Virus record (IMG/VR): IMGVR_UViG_3300044816_000098
Span: 90,157 to 154,156 of that record
DNA: 64,000 nt
DNA from: a virus
Direction: 5' to 3' (one strand)
Shown here: one piece after another, positions 1,634-63,222 of the stretch
Position numbering within the stretch: position 1 is the stretch's first letter
How the letters are laid out: each line of letters opens with the position of its first letter
The notes under the pieces: model-generated
The model's database searches: none
Seen by the model: the letters and a program-made list of their open reading frames with translations, nothing else
Told to the model about the DNA's origin: nothing
Program-made: the position numbers and the translations under genes

Positions 1634-2119
1634 ATGATCCAGGACGGCTGCCGGGTGACGTATACCGGCCTCGGGGAGCACCCGCTCGCCTTTGACGACC
1701 AGGGAACGGTCCTGGTCGTCTCCGGCACCGCCGCTCACGTCCAGTGGCGGACGGGTGCTCTCAAGGGCGGGGTATCCCTTGTGGATACCAGGGATCTCGA
1801 TCCCGTCTCCGGCAGCCGTCCACAGGCTGTGGAAAACGCTCTGGACGACTCTCTGGACATCGCGGGACTGGGTACCTTCACCGCCCGCCAGATCTACGAC
1901 GAGGGTGGCTCCGAGGCCCTGCTTAACGCCATGGTGGAGTCCGGCCACCTGTCGTCCTTCGGCAGCATCGCCGAGGAGGCCCTGACGCTCGTCGAAGGGC
2001 GTATCAGGGCCTCTGCGGACTTCCATGCCGTGACCAGCCATCTGGACGAGACCGAAGCCGATGAGCTGGTGCGTATGGCATCAGCCGCGCTGATCCGGGA
2101 CGCCTTCAGCCCGGACTGA
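1634..2119 (+). CDS. hypothetical protein
   Basis: AGGAG RBS before ATG 1634; fills the gap between neighbours. Confidence 0.7.
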   Translation: MIQDGCRVTYTGLGEHPLAFDDQGTVLVVSGTAAHVQWRTGALKGGVSLVDTRDLDPVSGSRPQAVENALDDSLDIAGLGTFTARQIYDEGGSEALLNAMVESGHLSSFGSIAEEALTLVEGRIRASADFHAVTSHLDETEADELVRMASAALIRDAFSPD

Positions 2120-2152
2120 TGTCCACCCCTTCACATCTCCCCGGAAGAGGTG
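2120..2152 (+). promoter_or_regulatory. putative phage late promoter TGTC-N20-GAAGAGGTG
   Basis: One of 13 copies with fixed spacing, all upstream of + strand genes. Confidence 0.7.
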
Positions 2153-2162
2153 GAGGTGGGTC

Positions 2163-5100
2163 GTGGCCAACAGGACATGCGAACGGTGCGGGGGAAAGGC
2201 ATCCCCGTGGATCCCGCGCAAGCGGAGCACCCAGGGGCAGATGCTCTGTGACGGGTGCACCCAGGTCGTGGCCCGGGAGCGTGTGTCCGCGAGGACCGCG
2301 AGCACGGATCCGGTGGAGGACCGCCAGCCCGCCGGGAGTGCTACCTCGGACTTCGGCTGGGACAACGACCTCGGGCCGGAGGGTGTCCATCCCCTCATGG
2401 CCCCGCTGCCGAACTCCATGTGGGAGCGCTTCTCCAAGAAGCAGGAGCTGCGCGGCAAGCCCCTGGTGCCCATGGCGAGCCAGATCAAGATCAACCAGAA
2501 GATGCGCGGCGAGAGCGGGGGTAAGACCGCCGCGCTCAAGACGGCGGACAAGGACCTCTCTCACAACGCGCATACGGTGACCCCGGGCAAGGTGATGACC
2601 AAGCACCTTGAGGAACACCACGATCTGCCTTACGCAGAGGCGTATGTCCATGGTTACGGCGCGAGCAAGCACCTGGAGCTGCACAACTCCGGCGCCGATC
2701 ACACCCATGACCCCTCTGGCGCCGTGGTGCCCAATGCTCCTCATGCACACACGAAGATGTCCGAGAAGGAGTTGGACTCCCACCTCACGGAGCACCACGG
2801 TCTGCCCGCCGCCTCGGTGAAGACGCTGAAGAATTTCCTGAACCCGGGACAGACCATGCATGGCCTGCATGCCGGGTACCACGAGGACCCCAATTCACCT
2901 GCTGCCCCCACGATCTCTCACAAGCACTCTGGAGAGGACTTCAGCAGCTCTCCTGAGGTCAACGGGAAGAAGCAGTCTCCTCACCCCGGCTCGATGACGT
3001 CCGGCGGTCTGAAGGCCCACCTGCTGGCCGACCACGACATGCCCGGCGACCACATCGCCAACGCGATCGACGCCACCGCCAAGGGCGCGATGCCGATCGA
3101 GACCATGAAGGCCCTGCACGACAAGGCGCACTCCCAGGGCATTGGGGTCGACAGTCACGAGCACGCCGAGGGGTGGGACCACCAGAGCTTCGTTCACCAG
3201 GACCCGCACGGGGTGGACGAGCACCTCGGACACCTCAAGCACGCCCACGGCATCGGGGACGAGGAGCTGGCCCAGAAGGCCGAGGCGTCCGGCGGGGACC
3301 CGGAGCTGCACCACCAGAAGCTGAAGGAACTCCACTACGACCTGCACGACCATGACGCCGGGTCGTACATCAAGCACGGGGCCCCGAACCACACGCACAG
3401 CGGGCACTCGGATGTGGGCCAGGCTTTCCTCGGAAGCAAGGGTGGGGATAGCGAGTACGAAAGTGGGGCGCATCTTCAGCATTCGCATGGACTGTTGGTG
3501 AAGGACCTCACCGATATCACCAAGTCGGAGCCCGACTACATCTCCCCGCAGCAGGCGTACGAGACGGCCCACGCGGCCCTCCACGCCAAGATGGGGGAGA
3601 ACGTCGATCACCAGCACGTGCCGACGATCAAGGAGGGGGTGAAGACCCCCGAGAAGATCGCCAAGGAGAAGATGGTCCAGCACTTCAAGGACCATCACCC
3701 TGAGGTATCCGACCCCGACCACATGTCGGTGGGCAGTCATGCTTCTCTCCATGACCCAGAGGCGTGGGGCTACAAGGGCCACCCCGGTCACGAGCACGAG
3801 AACGGGTGGGCAGGGAAAGTCGTCAAGGCCCTTCCCACGGAGAAGTCAGGGAAGCCCCTCACGCACGCTCACGCGTCGGACATGAGCCACAAGCAGCTCA
3901 AGGGCCACTTGATCATCGCCCACAACAACACGGGCGACGATCTGCACCTGAAGTCGCACAGTGAGCTGTTGCAGCAGCACGCCACCGAGCACGCGACCGG
4001 CGCCGCCACGAACCCCTGGAACGAGGGAGAGAAGCTCCCCGCGCACAACCACGGGATCTCGCAGAGCGGCCACGACGCCTTCGGGCGCAAGCTCTACGGT
4101 GGCGACGAGCCGGAGCCGAACGCCAAGATCCACCCGGCGGTCGAGGACGAATCCGGCGCGCTGGCGCACATCATTCAGCACCACCCCAACATCTCGGCAG
4201 AGACCTACGACACGTACAAGGGCGGGGACAACCCGCAGAAGTCGATGCAGAACTTCCACGCGAAGCTGCATGCAGGGAACACGGGACTCCCTGCGGCCCC
4301 TGACGGGCACGAGCACGCCGAGAAGCAGGGTCCTTCGACGCACATCCCCATCGGCTCCCACCTGGTCTCCCACCACGGGATGTCGCAGGAGCAGGTGGCC
4401 TCGATGTCGCCTGCGGAGTTCAAGGCCCACCACGAAGAGCTGCACACCCGACATGAAGAGGCGGACCTCGGACACGGCCACATCACGCCGGGCGGCAAGG
4501 TCCGGGGACCCATCGACTCCGCAATCAACCCGCACCACGCGAAGATGCGGGAGAACCCCGACCACCCTGCGGTCACCGAGTGGTACCACGGCACGAGCAA
4601 CGACTTCGAGGGTCCGCCGAAGAACGCCACCGAGCTGATGGAAGACCATTCTCAGTGGGGCAACTACGGCGGCGGTGACTGGAACAACCACGCCGGAACC
4701 CACTGGTCCTCGCTCCACGACATGGCGAGGAACTTCGGCAGCGGGGACAACCGGGTCGTCCACGCCAAGCTCCACATGAAGAACCCGATCACCTACAACT
4801 CGCTGAACCACATGTCCCACGACGCGTATGACCGTCTCCACGCGTCCGGCGACATGCAGGACGGCGGGGAGTTCCTGGGCAAGCACGACGACGACAACGG
4901 CTACAACGAGTGCTGCTCAAAGCCCCTGCTCCACTACGCCAAGGGCGGCCACCGCTCGGACGGCAAGTACGGCATGGAGCGGTACCGGGACTCCCTGCGG
5001 GCCTCCGGCCACGACGGGATCCTGGTCCGGAACCAGGCGGACGACCCCTCTGGCCACTGGAACGCCATCCCGTTGCACGCGGACCAGGTGGAGATCACCC

Positions 5101-27052: not shown

Positions 27053-28444
27053 ATGACCACACCCGTTGACACCGAGGGTGTCTCCGGCAACGCCGGGGCT
27101 GCCCCTCTGGGTACCGGCCGTTTCGCCAGCAACGTCGACACCGCCACTCCCGGCGGGGTCGGTGGTGGAGACACCGGGCTGGCGCCGGACCCGAACACCG
27201 CGATGTCCGGTACCCCCGACACCTCCGGCGCGGGCCAGGGCCAGAGTGCGACTTTCACGCCGGTCAGTACCCTGCTCTCCGGCACCTTGGACACCCAGTC
27301 CATGGGCTGGCCGCTGACTGCGGGTGTCTCCCAGGCGTACCGCGCCCCGAACACCACGATTGGCACCATCAACGGCGCCACCGGCGCGCTGGACACCACC
27401 CGCACCGACACGCCCATCTCGGACGGCTCCACCCGGCCCGACCTGATGAGCACCTACACCGGCACCATGGACAGCAACTACATCGGCGCCCCTGCGGTCC
27501 TGCCGGTCTCCTCGCTGGTCCCCGTCGCCCCGGCCGGTACCCCCACGGTCTCCAACGCGATTGCGGCCCGCTCGGTGCGGGTCACCTGGGCCACCGTGGC
27601 CGACCCGCATGCCACCGCTCCGGTCCAGGGGTACGTCATCCTGGGCTCCACCGGCGGCACGACCTACGCGCCCCGCAACGCGACCTCGGTCATCGTCCAG
27701 AACCTGGTCCCCGGACAGTCGTACAAGTTCCAGGTCGCGGCCCAGAACATCAACGGTCTGGGCCCGTACGGGACCGTCTCCGCCGCCGTCATCCCGTACA
27801 ACCCGGACGAGGCCGACGCGAACGACCCGAACGCCGGTCTGGAGCCCGCGAACACCCAGAACCCCATCTACGGTCCGGACGGCACCATCAAGGCCGGTAC
27901 AGGGCTTGCTGGGCGTCCTGGAGCCCCCACCTCGGTCGTGCTCTCGGGTACCACCACTCCGGGTGTCGTCAACGTTGTCTGGGTCGCTCCGACCGGTGTG
28001 GGCATCGTCCTGCGCTACACGGTGACCCTGTCCTCGGGCCAGACCAAGACGATCGCGGCGGGAACCCTCACCGCGCAGTTCACCGGCGTCGCCAGCGCGA
28101 CGGCCATCACGGGCACCGTCACGGCCGTGGGTGCGGTCACCAGCACCACTTCGGCGGCCTCTGCGGCCTTCGGTAAGCCGACGGCGCCTGCGGCCCCCAC
28201 GCTCACCAGTCCGACCGCCGGGACGATCCACTGCGTGTGGACTGCCCCGTCCTCGGGTGCGCCGCTGAACTACATCATCACCCTCGCGGGTGGCGACACC
28301 ACGACCCACACGGTGGCGGGCAACCTGCTCACCTACGACTTCACCAGCATCACCACCGGCCACGTCGACACTGCCACGGTCGGGGCCCAGGGCTCCGTCT
28401 CCACCACCACCTCGGTCGCCTCCTCTGCGGTGACCGTCTCCTAA
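27053..28444 (+). CDS. fibronectin type III domain virion protein
   Basis: Three FN3-like units (VTW...GY...LVPGQSYKFQVAAQN). Confidence 0.8.
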   Translation: MTTPVDTEGVSGNAGAAPLGTGRFASNVDTATPGGVGGGDTGLAPDPNTAMSGTPDTSGAGQGQSATFTPVSTLLSGTLDTQSMGWPLTAGVSQAYRAPNTTIGTINGATGALDTTRTDTPISDGSTRPDLMSTYTGTMDSNYIGAPAVLPVSSLVPVAPAGTPTVSNAIAARSVRVTWATVADPHATAPVQGYVILGSTGGTTYAPRNATSVIVQNLVPGQSYKFQVAAQNINGLGPYGTVSAAVIPYNPDEADANDPNAGLEPANTQNPIYGPDGTIKAGTGLAGRPGAPTSVVLSGTTTPGVVNVVWVAPTGVGIVLRYTVTLSSGQTKTIAAGTLTAQFTGVASATAITGTVTAVGAVTSTTSAASAAFGKPTAPAAPTLTSPTAGTIHCVWTAPSSGAPLNYIITLAGGDTTTHTVAGNLLTYDFTSITTGHVDTATVGAQGSVSTTTSVASSAVTVS

Positions 28445-59301: not shown

Positions 59302-60869
59302 CCGCACCCACGATCGAGAAGCCCCCTCCCGCCGGATGGCCGGAGGGGGCGCTCTACTACAGCCCGAAGGGTTTGTACGGGTTCCAGGCCGACGACATCG
59401 CCCGAGCCCTCGTCCTGCGCGCTGAGGGCCGTCCGCATGCCCTGTTCTCCTGGGGCACCGGTCTGGGGAAGTCGCACGGCCTGATGGCCACCAGCGCCTT
59501 CACGATCGAGGACCAAGCGGCAGACGTCGTGTTGCTGATCTGTGAGAAGGTCAAGCTCCAGGAATGGCTGGCGGACTTCCAGCAGTTCACCCGGTTCGAT
59601 ACCCGGATTCACCACGGTCCGAGCAGGAAGGGCAAGCTCGCCAAGCTCGGGTTCCCGCAGGTCCTGATCAGCACGTATGAGACCTTTGCTACCGATCTGG
59701 CCGTCTTTGAGGCGAATAAGAACGACCGAGGCAAGCATGCCGTCCACGGATGGCTCATGGGAGAGTTGATCAATTCCGGCCTCAAGCCGATGGTCATCTT
59801 CGACGAGTCGGACAAGCTCTCGAACCGTAAGAGTCGTCTGTACAAGTCGTGGGATCACGTTCTGCGTAACTTGCGTAAGAAGTACCCGAAAATGCCGGTT
59901 TACATGGCTTCTGCGACCCCGATCCGCCGAGACCTGGAGGGGGCGTACAACCAGCTCCGGTTGATGGCCCCGGGCAGCATGCCGCTGGTCGGCGAGTTCG
60001 AGAAGTACTTCTTGCGCGGTCGGGACATCTATGGCCGTCCCCAGTACTTCGACCACCGGATCCCCGAGTTCGTGGCCATGGCCGCACCGCTCCTGCTGAC
60101 CAAAAGCAAAGAGGACAAGGACGTCGTCGACCAGTTCCCGAAGCTCACCGAGGAGAGCTTGTGGGTCGACATGGAAGGCGCTCAGAAGGAGCTGTACGAC
60201 TTCGTCGCGGATCTGGACGTACCTGGCCAACTGACCGCCCTGCGGCAGATCTGCGCCCACCCGGCGGCACTCATCCACTCGGCTCTGTATGGGGAGAGCA
60301 AGCTCGCCAAGACGCTCTACGCCGAACTGGGTCCGGACTACCTGCGGTCGATCCCCTCCGCGAAGACCGAGCGACTCGTGGACTATGTCCGGCCGATCGT
60401 GCTCAACGAGCGAGCCAAGGTGGTCACCTTCTCCTTCTACGGCCCGAGCGTGTTGCCCCTGCTCAAGGCCACGCTGGAGGCCAAGGGGGTTCAGGTCTGG
60501 GTCCACGACGAGGACCACGGTATCCAGGCGTTCCGTACCTCGAAAGAGCCCGGCGTCCTGCTGTGCTCCGATGCGGCCAGCCGAGGGATCAACCTTCCCG
60601 AGGCCGAACACCTGATCGAGTACGACATAGCGGGCACCTACGGGACCCGGACCCAGCGGATCAACCGGGCCAGCCGGATCGGTCAGGGCGGGCCCACGCT
60701 GACGGTCCGGACCATGCTGATCCGCAAGTCAGTCGAGGTCAGCCTGTTGTACGGGATGCTGCGGGGTCACGCGCAGTCGGACGCCCTGCTGGGGGTCGGG
60801 GTCACAGGGGACGAGTTCCTCACTGCCGCCATGCGCCGCCGGATCCTGACCGAGGGCATGCACGACTGA
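59298..60869 (+). CDS. SNF2-family (SF2) helicase
   Basis: GTGLGKS, DESD, SATP, RGINL and QRINRASR motifs. Confidence 0.9.
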   Translation: MTAPTIEKPPPAGWPEGALYYSPKGLYGFQADDIARALVLRAEGRPHALFSWGTGLGKSHGLMATSAFTIEDQAADVVLLICEKVKLQEWLADFQQFTRFDTRIHHGPSRKGKLAKLGFPQVLISTYETFATDLAVFEANKNDRGKHAVHGWLMGELINSGLKPMVIFDESDKLSNRKSRLYKSWDHVLRNLRKKYPKMPVYMASATPIRRDLEGAYNQLRLMAPGSMPLVGEFEKYFLRGRDIYGRPQYFDHRIPEFVAMAAPLLLTKSKEDKDVVDQFPKLTEESLWVDMEGAQKELYDFVADLDVPGQLTALRQICAHPAALIHSALYGESKLAKTLYAELGPDYLRSIPSAKTERLVDYVRPIVLNERAKVVTFSFYGPSVLPLLKATLEAKGVQVWVHDEDHGIQAFRTSKEPGVLLCSDAASRGINLPEAEHLIEYDIAGTYGTRTQRINRASRIGQGGPTLTVRTMLIRKSVEVSLLYGMLRGHAQSDALLGVGVTGDEFLTAAMRRRILTEGMHD

Positions 60870-60893
60870 GGGGCCCTCCGAAGAGGGCCCCTC
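60868..60893. terminator. hairpin between the convergent helicase and array transcripts
   Basis: GAGGGGCCCTC-CGAA-GAGGGCCCCTC. Confidence 0.7.
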
Positions 60894-61229
60894 CCATGCC
60901 TCGCCTTACCCCGCCAGGTCCCGCCGTACCTCGCCCAGCCTGGTCTCGCCTAGCCTCGCCTTGAACGCCCCCACTAGCGCCGTGAAGCCCTGATGGGGAA
61001 CCCTGCCTCGCCTAACCAGACCCCGCCTTGCCCAACCACGCCAGGCCCAGAACGTCCCCTCCAGGACTTTAAAATCCCGGAGGGGTACCTTGCCCTGCCG
61101 TACCTGGCCCTGCCACGTCCTGCCGTGCCAAACCGCGCCATGAACGCCCCCGCACGGGTATTGAGCCCCGTGTGGAGTACCTCGCCTCGCCATGCCGAAC
61201 CTCGCCCGGCCAGGACTTGCCTTGCCGTG
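60894..61229 (-). repeat. array of four (GGY-NN)n pentamer tracts with three 37-nt hairpin linkers; candidate guide-RNA array
   Basis: Tracts 60894-60963 (14 units), 61001-61050 (10), 61088-61142 (11), 61180-61229 (10); linkers 60964-61000, 61051-61087, 61143-61179. Confidence 0.85.
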
Positions 61230-61238
61230 CAGAACAGG

Positions 61239-61282
61239 ACCCTACGCGAGAACTTGCACTCCTGCAATGCCGGGAGTAACGT
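61239..61282. promoter_or_regulatory. overlapping divergent sigma70-type promoters
   Basis: Minus: TTGCAG-N17-TAGGGT (61267 to 61239). Plus: TTGCAC-N17-TAACGT (61254-61282). Confidence 0.7.
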
Positions 61283-61405
61283 TCTCCTCGTTCGGAAGTT
61301 CACCCGCAAGGGGGAGCCCAAGAGCGTGCGCCCGTAAGGCCAGGGATCGTTAGGCCGGAGGGAAGTCCCGGACCCCTGTCCGGGTTCGACAGCCAGGGGT
61401 GAGTC

Positions 61406-61524
61406 ACGATGTTGGCAGAGTGGCCGAATGCACCGGTGGAGGACGGCGATACGTCCAGGACCGGAGATCCGTGAGGGGTATCGCCCCCTCCTGGTTCCGT
61501 GGAGTTCGAATCCCACACGTCGTA
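61406..61524 (+). ncRNA. tRNA-like RNA lacking a canonical anticodon loop
   Basis: 7-bp acceptor ACGATGT/ACGTCGT; D-arm TGGCAGAGTGGCCGAATGC; T-loop GTTCGAATC; extended arms with complementary loops. Confidence 0.7.
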
Positions 61525-62190
61525 CAAGGGGTGCACGGCCCAAGCAGATCCCTTACGTGCGCTCCCCACCAGCGGATGTCGGAGGACTAACTATCCCTCC
61601 GGCTCCGGCCTCAGGTCTGGTCCTACCTGTGCTGGGCAACGGGACCACCCCTCATCGCCCGGCGGGCTTTACTCCTTTCACCGCCGGGTGGCCCTGGACC
61701 CGCGTGCTGGCTAGATTCGGCGGGTTTATGCACCAGGTTCCCTCTCCTGGGGGCCGGAACGAGGTGGGGGCAGACGGGCGACGTGCACACATCTACTTCG
61801 CGGTAGGTGGTCGTCTGTTCGACCAGCGGCGTACTCCGTGCCGTGCCCCGACTACGGAGGAGGGGGAGGCATTCAGCCGGGCCTTTTTGGGTGGGCCAGG
61901 AAGGATGACCGGCAACGAGGTAGCTCGCCTCGTTGCCGCAGATGAGCGACGAAGGCCCTTCCCGGTGACAGACGGGGGAGGGCCTTCCGTCTGTCCAGAG
62001 GTGTTCACGACGGCATCAGTGGGGATCTCCAGCCCTGGCCCCACCAGCCCTTATAGGACCTTCAGGAACCTCACCAACACCAGCCCCTCCTGGCCGTAGT
62101 TGAGGAGGTACTTAGGTAGGGGACGTAGTTAGAACTCCCCGTGAAAACGTGCAGGTCAGTGGCCTGCTACGGCGATCCCGGGAGGAGGGG

Positions 62191-62199
62191 TGCTATGAT
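62191..62199 (+). promoter_or_regulatory. extended -10 element TGCTATGAT
   Basis: TGn-TATGAT upstream of the 62380 ORF. Confidence 0.4.
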
Positions 62200-62379
62200 C
62201 TGCCCCGAGCAACGACAAAGGCCCCCACCTCGGTGAGGGCCGGTCGTCCGGAAGGTGCGTCAACACCAGACCGGATGCTCACTCCCTAGTGACTCACGCA
62301 ATCCCGGGAGCAAGCCCTGTATCACGCAACCGTACCAGGCGCACTCCGTCTGGTCATCTCGATCTCCGCCGACCGTTCC

Positions 62380-63222
62380 GTGTCGACGTCCTCTCTCCGC
62401 ATGGTGCACGGGATGATCCCTGCCGTGGAGGAGAAGCTCGCCCTCCACGACGAGGCGTACATCCCGCAGGCCACCGTTGCCGAGTGCACGGGTCTGGCGG
62501 CCAGCAAGGTGCTCAGCCGGTACTACCCCAAGCAGGCTCAGGAGCTGGGCATCGTCCTGCTCTCCCACCGGGGGAAGTTCGGGATGGTCGCCACCAAGGA
62601 CGGCAACTGGCGGGGGGAGTCCTCCCGCTGGATCCTGGACCTGGACAACTACACGCCCCGGGACATCCCCGTCATGGACCTGGAGACCGCCCCGTACTGG
62701 GGTGACCTGGACTACGAGGCCATCGCCGCCGCCATGAAGCCGACGGACGTCACCTGGGCCAAGGAGCCCGAGGCGTACCGGCTGACCATGGCCCTGCTCC
62801 ACCACGTGGGTCTGGCCAAGGTGAAGGTGACCCCCTACCAGGCGGCCGAGATCTTGGGGAAGTCTCGGGTGACCGGCTGGAGGACCCTGCGCAAGATGAG
62901 CGAGATGGGCCTGTACAAGGACGGCTGGGTGGACGCCTCGATCCTCTTCAGGGACGCGACCCTGGCCTACGACCACCCCGAGCTGACGGCCCGTACGAAG
63001 GCCCACCAGGCCCGCCGGTGGACCGTGTTCACCCGGGAGGGCTGGGAGGTGCGGGACGCGGCCCGGCAGTGGCGGGAGATGCTGCCCCGGATCAGCGCTG
63101 TCTCCCCGGTGTCCGAGGTGTTCGCCCGCTACGTGGGGCACCGGCATCTGGAGGCCACGGTCCGGTACGTGCAGGATGTGTTCTCCCAGCCGAATGCGAC
63201 CGGCCAGCCCGCCAGGATTTAA
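62380..63222 (+). CDS. winged-HTH DNA-binding protein (possible replication/regulatory protein; start uncertain)
   Basis: TPYQAAEILGKSRVTGWRTLRKMSEMGL wHTH pattern. Confidence 0.6.
   Translation: MSTSSLRMVHGMIPAVEEKLALHDEAYIPQATVAECTGLAASKVLSRYYPKQAQELGIVLLSHRGKFGMVATKDGNWRGESSRWILDLDNYTPRDIPVMDLETAPYWGDLDYEAIAAAMKPTDVTWAKEPEAYRLTMALLHHVGLAKVKVTPYQAAEILGKSRVTGWRTLRKMSEMGLYKDGWVDASILFRDATLAYDHPELTARTKAHQARRWTVFTREGWEVRDAARQWREMLPRISAVSPVSEVFARYVGHRHLEATVRYVQDVFSQPNATGQPARI

Follow-up and report, generated by a model that had tools for sequence, protein, structure and literature searches.

A transfer RNA (tRNA)-shaped element that lacks an anticodon loop, and whose anticodon and variable arms instead end in complementary loops, lies at positions 61406-61524 (+ strand) of the window, the 64,000-nucleotide stretch of virus DNA analyzed here. 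The window takes up the final 64 kb of a 154,156-base-pair (bp) uncultured virus record (IMGVR_UViG_3300044816_000098), which bears direct terminal repeats and comes from a large soil phage with a GC content of about 65%. The element is a real, conserved phage RNA domain that is absent from Rfam 15 and from the calls of tRNA finders, and its structure is well supported by fifteen variants found at one locus in related phages. We put the probability at about 0.55 that this is a non-coding RNA domain derived from a serine tRNA, locked onto itself, which imitates the shape of a tRNA and so acts as a handle or decoy toward a factor recognizing the tRNA body. An earlier note on this DNA, made from its letters, had described a tRNA-shaped element with complementary loops of 6 nucleotides (nt), and every feature that it listed is present.

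Architecture of the element

The features of a cloverleaf frame are present, namely a 7-bp acceptor stem, a D arm with GG, a 5-bp T stem and a T loop of the form TTCRANY, and the helices of this frame are 100% paired in the nine variants that keep a D arm. The acceptor stem (61406-61412 / 61517-61523) includes one U-G pair, and 2-3 of its 7 pairs are changed on both sides among these nine sequences. The D arm (61415-61431) is of the class II, serine type, with a 3-bp stem (61415-61417 / 61429-61431) and an 11-nt loop containing GG; it is nearly invariant in the nine variants, with one compensating change in the stem. This arm had been described in the earlier note as Ser/Leu-like. Of the 46 other viral contigs matched by the 5' motif GTTGGCAGAGNGGCCNAATGC, 43 have an ARAGORN tRNA call at the site. 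Because these calls are mostly tRNA-Ser, the arm is better described as Ser-like.

The T arm (61499-61516) has the T loop TTCGAAT and an extra A at 61503. This bulged A, which had also been pointed out, is particular to the window and its closest relative, L002 (L numbers are our own labels), whereas the T stem of the remaining 13 variants is a plain helix of 5 bp. The discriminator is A at 61524 and is followed by CAAGG, so that CCA is not encoded, as had been stated. The fifteen variants differ in their discriminator, which may be A, G or U, but share a C directly after it.

The remainder of the element is made up of two long arms. The extended 'anticodon' arm (61433-61464) consists of an outer stem (61433-61437 / 61460-61464), a 3x3 internal loop and an inner 5-bp stem (61441-61445 / 61452-61456), and both stems covary. 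At its tip is the first kissing loop, GCGATA (61446-61451). The lengthened variable arm (61466-61498) carries a hairpin (61473-61478 / 61485-61490) whose tip is the second kissing loop, TATCGC (61479-61484). The two loops are exact reverse complements, and with their closing pairs 8 nt are able to pair. The minimum-energy fold of the window element is the same cloverleaf with two extra hairpins, in an unpermuted topology.

Conservation and covariation in fifteen variants

The DNA around relatives of the neighboring SNF2-type helicase gene, located on metagenomic contigs of about 100-160 kb, was searched with profile and covariance models. Fifteen distinct variants, counting that of the window, are present in related uncultured phage contigs of about 150 kb, and every one lies downstream of the orthologous SNF2 helicase gene on the same strand. 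Nine variants keep the D arm (type A: the window, L002, L003, L143, L144, L148, L149, L138 and L140), and their helicases are 64-86% identical to that of the window. The closest of them, L002, is 74% identical to the window across the whole region of about 1 kb. The other six (type B: L056, L114, L077, L116, L053 and L005) have no D arm and keep the acceptor stem, the T arm and the two hairpins; their T loop is TGCGAAT, and their helicases are about 54-59% identical to that of the window. Three relatives, L147, L115 and L118, are without such an element at the locus. In more distant relatives this place is occupied by arrays of ordinary tRNAs, with up to nine in L124, which fits descent of the element from a phage tRNA gene.

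The second loop is complementary to the first in every variant. In type A the pairings are GCGAUA/UAUCGC (window and L002), GCGGU/ACCGC (L143, L144 and L148), GCGG/CCGC (L003), CGGUC/GACCG (L149), ACGG/CCGU (L138) and GUGGA/UCCAC (L140). In type B they are GGCGGGA/UCCCGCC, GACGGGA/UCCCGUC, GGUGGGA/UCCCACC, GUGGGA/UCCCAC and ACAGG/CCUGU. The type A pairing was tested on a MAFFT alignment that had not been fitted to any structure. The loop-loop helix has six pairs, four of which are changed on both sides, and 88.9% of cells are paired; sliding the partner loop by 1-3 columns brings the pairing down to 21-53%, and the covariation score of the whole structure was reached by no 3'-letter shuffle. 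The type B loop-loop helix has seven pairs, three of them changed on both sides, and is 95.2% paired. Cognate loop pairs form runs of 3-8 Watson-Crick pairs; of the 13 distinct loop pairs tested, 10 had a run that was equaled in fewer than 5% of shuffles.

The nested helices all covary as well, with 17 of 34 pairs changed on both sides and 94% paired. In the stems of the two loop-bearing hairpins the corresponding counts are 4 of 6 and, for the variable arm, 7 of 9. Because these stems covary too, the loop complementarity does not represent a disguised alternative long helix. Judged by these substitution patterns, the hairpins and the loop-loop helix are both under selection. That homologs might lack the loop complementarity, a possibility that the earlier note had raised against itself, is contradicted by the alignment, in which the loop-loop pairs are kept by compensating changes in two subfamilies.

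The same comparison bears on whether the element could be a decaying tRNA pseudogene with loops that are complementary by chance. A pseudogene would be in keeping with the failure of tRNA finders and Rfam to recognize the element and with its unremarkable fold energy. Against this, all helices, the loop-loop helix among them, show compensating changes over fifteen variants, and the D and T arms are nearly invariant while the neighboring helicase protein diverges to about 54% identity. We regard decay as close to excluded.

Additionally, a reduced tRNA-like element of 69 nt is located downstream of the helicase in L054 (6139-6207), and the same is found in L055 and L130. Its acceptor stem is that of type B (GCGGGAC/GTCCCGC) and its T loop, GGTTCGAATCC, is normal, but there is only a single internal hairpin, which leaves no partner loop.

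Loss of the decoding end

The two strands of the anticodon stem are separated by 22 nt, made up of the internal loop and the hairpin, and there is neither a 7-nt anticodon loop nor a U33. The predicted structure makes the element very unlikely to decode, because no anticodon can be presented for codon reading. The earlier suggestion of a non-decoding tRNA mimic is thus very probably correct, since the element is conserved in fifteen variants and no anticodon loop is left even after removal of the inner hairpin. The more specific suggestion of a decoy for anticodon nucleases is unlikely as stated, as no anticodon loop is on display.

A working tRNA that carries the extra hairpin as an intron would account for the intact tRNA frame, and phage tRNAs with unexplained insertions, reported as introns, have been described in Lak megaphages (PMC6784885). 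However, once the inner hairpin is taken out, the 5-8 nt that remain (GGA/AGG, CTA/GAT, CTAA/GGAT, CTAT/GGAT and TCTCA/none) contain neither a conserved U33 nor a triplet common to the variants, so that excision does not restore a normal anticodon loop. There is no bulge-helix-bulge motif, the internal loop being symmetric rather than a pair of staggered 3-nt bulges, and the insert of 15-18 nt is too short for a group I intron. ARAGORN made no call in its intron mode, and RtcB was not found in the phage. Furthermore, the supposed intron loop covaries with the loop of the variable arm, which a spliced-out piece would not need. Together these observations argue against splicing to a normal tRNA, an outcome that had been foreseen as damaging to the idea of a mimic, and we consider it highly improbable. 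A transfer-messenger RNA (tmRNA) was rejected as well, because ARAGORN in tmRNA mode made no such call anywhere in the genome and the tRNA-like part is one uninterrupted piece.

Two arms of matched length

In both arms and in all fifteen variants, each strand spans 12-16 nt between the base of the arm and the kissing segment; the per-strand averages are 13.5-15 nt in arm 1 and 12-14 nt in arm 2. The length stays within this range despite a varied build, with loops of 6 nt in some cases and of 12-14 nt in others, internal loops or continuous stems, and differing bulges. The matched lengths suggest a geometric constraint and, as far as sequence comparison can speak to geometry, lean toward pairing within one molecule. 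Most likely, the two arms would lie side by side and be tied at their tips. The L2-L3 interaction of the purine riboswitch provides a structural analogy, in that two adjacent arms of the same length run in parallel and are joined through their terminal loops. The riboswitch differs in using two Watson-Crick pairs and base quadruples, compared with 4-8 pairs in the phage element, and it is a ligand-sensing three-way junction that is unrelated to the element in sequence and context.

It is important to realize that covariation fits pairing within a molecule and pairing between molecules alike, which weighs against the first of these. The loops could join separate molecules hand in hand, as in the phi29 prohead RNA (pRNA), and produce dimers or closed rings that show several tRNA-like tops. 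In the window both loops are 6 nt and completely paired, and fully paired 6-nt loops normally favor end-to-end stacking of hairpins, a geometry that would strain closure within one molecule. Covarying loop pairs between molecules are used by phi29 pRNA, and ROOL and GOLLD, two large phage-associated RNAs, have reportedly been found to be homo-oligomers. For a ring, however, the near-equal arm lengths of all fifteen variants would be needless. Many variants also have loops of 9-16 nt, in which the unpaired flanks could bridge two parallel arms, and no packaging-motor context is seen. The likeness to phi29 pRNA itself consists of two loops of one RNA that are mutually complementary and covary. 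In contrast to the element, pRNA is not tRNA-like, its loops pair between molecules, and it forms a ring on the portal; neither homology to it nor a packaging context was found for the phage element. We consider pairing between molecules unlikely and continue to favor a lock within a single molecule.

A probable domain of a longer transcript

A promoter-like motif at 61254..61282 (+ strand) consists of TTGCAC, a 17-nt spacer ending in GGAG, and TAACGT, with a predicted start near 61289. The motif class, TTGnnn followed by 17 nt ending in GGAG and then TAnnnT, is found in 28 copies in the 154-kb genome, all on the + strand (15985 and 61254 of the window, and 26 more at 28836-86442 of the genome). 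The consensus TTGTACTCCTGCAATNNNNGGAGTAGAGT includes the inverted repeat ACTCC...GGAGT. Downstream of almost every copy there is a ribosome-binding site with a start codon, and most copies lie 30-45 nt upstream of that codon. All fifteen elements have a copy 110-275 nt upstream, at about 150 nt in the window. From this motif we infer that the element is probably transcribed from a phage promoter.

The leader of the predicted non-coding transcript (61289..61366, + strand) forms GNRA-capped hairpins and has no credible open reading frame or Pfam match. It is followed by an H-type pseudoknot (61367..61399, + strand) with stem S1 at 61367-61372 / 61379-61384 and stem S2 formed by CCCCTG (61373-61378) and CAGGGG (61394-61399). 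The pseudoknot is present in all nine type A variants, and S2 shows compensating substitutions such as CCTCGT/ACGAGG, CCCCAT/ATGGGG and CCCGTG/CACGGG. Between its 3' strand and the acceptor stem are 0-6 nt in eight of these variants; in the ninth, L138, an extra hairpin intervenes. On the other side of the element, a trailer helix (61526..61554, + strand) pairs AAGGG (61526-61530) with CCCTT (61550-61554) and starts 2 nt after the discriminator. Equivalents in other type A variants, read by eye, carry compensating changes (AAGGAG/CTCCTT in L149 and AAGGGC/GCCCTT in L140); in the window trailer an alternative hairpin is possible. Further 3' blocks are kept within subgroups, and a ATGGGGCACC block is common to type A and type B loci.

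Since a promoter motif lies upstream, a covarying pseudoknot stands at the acceptor stem and a covarying helix follows the discriminator, the tRNA-like part is probably an internal domain of a longer non-coding transcript of, most likely, several hundred nt. A domain of a larger RNA, one of the options put forward in the earlier note, is accordingly the one that fits best, given the promoter motif, the abutting pseudoknot and the trailer helix.

Within such a transcript, the tRNA-like part could act mainly as a processing signal, at which RNase P and RNase Z would cut free the flanking RNAs (the pseudoknot leader and the 3' domains) and the lock would keep the excised piece from translation. 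The acceptor-T stack is intact in all fifteen variants and the element sits in a longer non-coding transcript with conserved structured flanks, both of which are consistent with this role, and tRNA-like punctuation is established for MALAT1/mascRNA and for mitochondrial transcripts. Yet in most type A variants the pseudoknot ends 0-2 nt before position 1, and with a helix starting 2 nt after the discriminator there is no free leader or trailer. A plain tRNA would also do as a tag, whereas the retention of a 6-7-bp loop-loop helix and of matched arms suggests a role for the locked body. Cutting alone is in our judgment an improbable purpose, and a role for the locked body itself is preferred.

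An RNA primer or regulator of a replication origin, with the tRNA-like part as one folding domain, was also weighed. The locus is situated between two helicase genes (SNF2 and DinG-like), and short 5-bp repeat arrays lie directly upstream (60868-61267). RNA-based origins are documented for extrachromosomal mycobacteriophage prophages, but that account mentions no tRNA-like element (PMC7157519). Neither ParA nor a tyrosine integrase was found in the phage, so there is no sign of a plasmid-like lifestyle, and nothing in the analysis points to an actual origin. We hold this role to be very improbable. An attachment site is probably not represented here either, as no tyrosine integrase was found in the phage and selection acts on RNA pairing.

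Comparison with known RNAs

The closest named relative is RNA C of phage T4 (species 1 RNA, rnaC; NC_000866 70908-71046), a stable small phage RNA encoded among tRNA genes. Like the phage element, it has the sequence TTCGAAT in its T arm and is closed by a stem resembling an acceptor, and where a tRNA would have its decoding end there are two hairpins. In rnaC (L159:909-1047, - strand) the sequence TTGACG is at the tip of the long hairpin and CGTCAA forms the loop of the second, and the two are exact reverse complements; no mention of this complementarity was found in the literature. By our own criteria for an rnaC-type RNA, there being no formal definition in the literature, the phage element belongs with it, having the T arm, the closing stem, the two hairpins with complementary loops and a tRNA locus. 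There are also clear differences. The arms of rnaC are very unequal (about 22 and 10 bp), unlike the matched arms of the phage element, and rnaC has no serine-type D arm, a different host and GC content, and no upstream pseudoknot that was noted. Sequence homology was undetected: the covariance model R1 gives rnaC 16.5 bits, which is within the 9-44 bits of neighboring ordinary T4 tRNAs. Because the score is at the level of ordinary tRNAs, the resemblance is one of design and not of demonstrable homology.

Phage tRNA look-alikes have been known since the species 1 and 2 RNAs of T4 were sequenced in the 1970s, and their roles, that of rnaC included, are still listed as unknown (PMC3014915, PMC9697503). 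We conclude that the phage element is an uncatalogued, serine-derived case of a known but unexplained kind of phage RNA.

With class II tRNA-Ser (RF00005) the element shares a 7-bp acceptor stem, U8, a 3-bp D stem and a loop with GG, a long variable arm, a 5-bp T stem and the GTTCGAATC T loop. Unlike tRNA-Ser, it has no 7-nt anticodon loop, U33 or anticodon, and its variable arm is about twice the normal length. In the variants, pair 2-71 is mostly C-G and the discriminator is A, G or U, a combination at odds with the serine identity set. The D-arm motif of the element recurs in serine-type tRNA frames on three unrelated viral contigs (L013:6478-6601, -; L021:1799-1898, +; L034:1605-1727, +). 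These frames are irregular, have enlarged anticodon and variable regions, received no ARAGORN call and score 48-57 bits with covariance model R1. The L021 frame was inspected and has no clear loop-loop match.

YrlA (RF02553) is likewise a non-decoding tRNA mimic, and the phage studied here encodes Ro60. YrlA is permuted, with an acceptor closed by a loop and with ends on the anticodon side that form the Ro-binding stem. The phage element, in contrast, has an open acceptor end and a closed anticodon side and is unpermuted. A Y RNA of the YrlA type was rejected on this topology and because 60900-62100 has no YrlA match at E <= 10. The Ro60/TROVE protein has 561 amino acids (aa) and is encoded at 1843-3528 (- strand) of L152, which corresponds to 82000-90200 of the genome. 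At least two tRNA-mimic modules resembling YrlA (L152 3659-3727 and 4120-4184, both -) are located on that strand upstream of the Ro60 gene; they are sub-threshold in Rfam at 27.6 and 36.9 bits against a cut-off of 69. Homologs of Ro60 are found on several related contigs of about 150 kb. All four element-bearing contigs that could be checked have Ro60, one contig without the element has it, and three have neither. This co-occurrence provides no independent evidence, because the pattern tracks relatedness. At 61788-61826, 3' of the element, TACTTC and CTGTTC lie 15 nt apart; this resemblance to a Y RNA scaffold may be due to chance, given the lack of a YrlA match in this region.

Proposed role of the locked RNA

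We propose a class II (serine-type) tRNA gene as the ancestor of the RNA domain. The shape-giving parts of the tRNA, namely the acceptor stem, the D arm and the T arm, would have been kept and with them the elbow and the acceptor-T stack. The decoding end would have been rebuilt, with an extra hairpin in place of the anticodon loop, a variable arm lengthened to match, and terminal loops that base-pair. Such a loop lock would both remove the anticodon and rigidly fix the lower half of the molecule. The RNA would then serve as a tRNA-shaped handle or decoy, read by its shape, for a protein or ribonucleoprotein that recognizes the tRNA body. All fifteen variants have in common the acceptor-T stack and two locked arms of equal length, to which type A adds a near-invariant D arm and T loop, the makings of a normal tRNA elbow. 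Because only the parts that give shape are kept, and no synthetase identity, a shape-recognized, non-decoding module is the simplest reading. Possible readers, which are guesses, include the enzymes RNase P and RNase Z, the enzyme that adds CCA, toxins that attack the body or the 3' end of tRNAs by modification or cleavage, and surveillance of the Ro60 type.

Several points weigh against this proposal. The binding partner of the RNA is a guess. The acceptor-stem sequence and the discriminator are not conserved, and because they vary no specific aminoacyl-tRNA synthetase identity is evident. In six variants the D arm is missing and the T loop is changed to TGCGAAT, and the tRNA elbow may therefore not be the common functional surface. 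The fold energy of the window element has a z-score of only -0.93, no better than that of shuffled sequence; since energy alone proves nothing, the structural support rests on the homologs. The homologs are themselves related, so that the shuffle counts overstate significance, and a stronger case for loop-loop pairing comes from the double changes, which affect several positions in two diverged groups. Finally, no RNA sequencing run is listed as containing the stretch, which is listed in DNA runs only, at a small share.

The comparison of variants does reveal a design rule, in which the top half of a tRNA is kept, the anticodon is lost, and equal arms are tied by a covarying loop-loop helix, in two diverged subtypes. 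Genes of this kind are missed in phage annotation because they are absent from Rfam 15 and invisible to tRNA finders. More speculatively, self-locked, anticodon-less tRNA mimics may be a widespread, uncatalogued class of phage RNA that arose repeatedly from different class II tRNAs and has one shared job, an idea that we hold to be less likely than not. If it were true, the shared job might be, for example, to disarm host immune effectors that attack the tRNA body or 3' end, or to capture a tRNA-processing enzyme, and the family would offer a tractable route to the 50-year-old question of the role of T4 RNA C. If one partner, for instance Ro60, a toxin directed at tRNA or an enzyme of tRNA processing, were shared by the whole class, these RNAs would represent an RNA-based layer in the conflict between phage and host, as well as a compact natural scaffold for RNA engineering.

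Catalog searches and genomic setting

ARAGORN was run on the window and on the whole genome, with and without introns and in tmRNA mode, and made no call at 61406-61524. Rfam 15 has no family at gathering score in the window, at E <= 10 in 60900-62100, or at E <= 0.05 in seven related loci. Both scans had been named beforehand as checks, and neither assigns the site to a known family. We attribute to chance a weak DUF3800-III match at 61323-61410, which scored 16.3 bits where the cut-off is 43.8. A blastn search of 60870-62400 against 50,697 phage records returned no match, and exact-pattern scans of viral contigs with two family-specific strings gave none. A scan of viral contigs with the single helicase protein found nothing, the relatives having come from an alignment-based scan, and a scan of genome contigs found only distant helicases, all without the element. 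No described kissing-loop tRNA mimic in phages, nor such a loop lock, was found in the literature.

The host is likely an actinomycete, as the best cellular matches of the Ro60 and helicase proteins are in Streptomyces and allied actinomycetes; this assignment has no other basis. The CCA-adding enzyme was searched for in the phage together with RtcB, ParA and tyrosine integrase, and none of the four was found. At 27802-27878 (- strand) of the window, ARAGORN calls a 77-nt tRNA-Trp(CCA) with its anticodon at position 37. The Rfam tRNA model has no match at gathering score anywhere in the window, this tRNA included, and the tRNA may be atypical.

The element is located inside a stretch of about 1.4 kb without credible genes, between the end of the SNF2-type helicase gene (60869) and the start of a gene for a helix-turn-helix protein (about 62380). 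The repeat arrays at 60868-61267 follow the helicase stop codon directly and are tracts of 5-bp units (CC-NN-R, + strand) separated by hairpins. A run of NNGCC pentamers is also found 3' of the helicase gene in L115, and the tract is thus a feature kept in relatives. Several of the SNF2 helicase orthologs (P0006, P0019, P0021, P0048 and P0052) are about 860 aa long with a LAGLIDADG-type insertion, probably an intein, and the DinG-like helicase in L147 (7632-8452) has a match to an intein-splicing domain.
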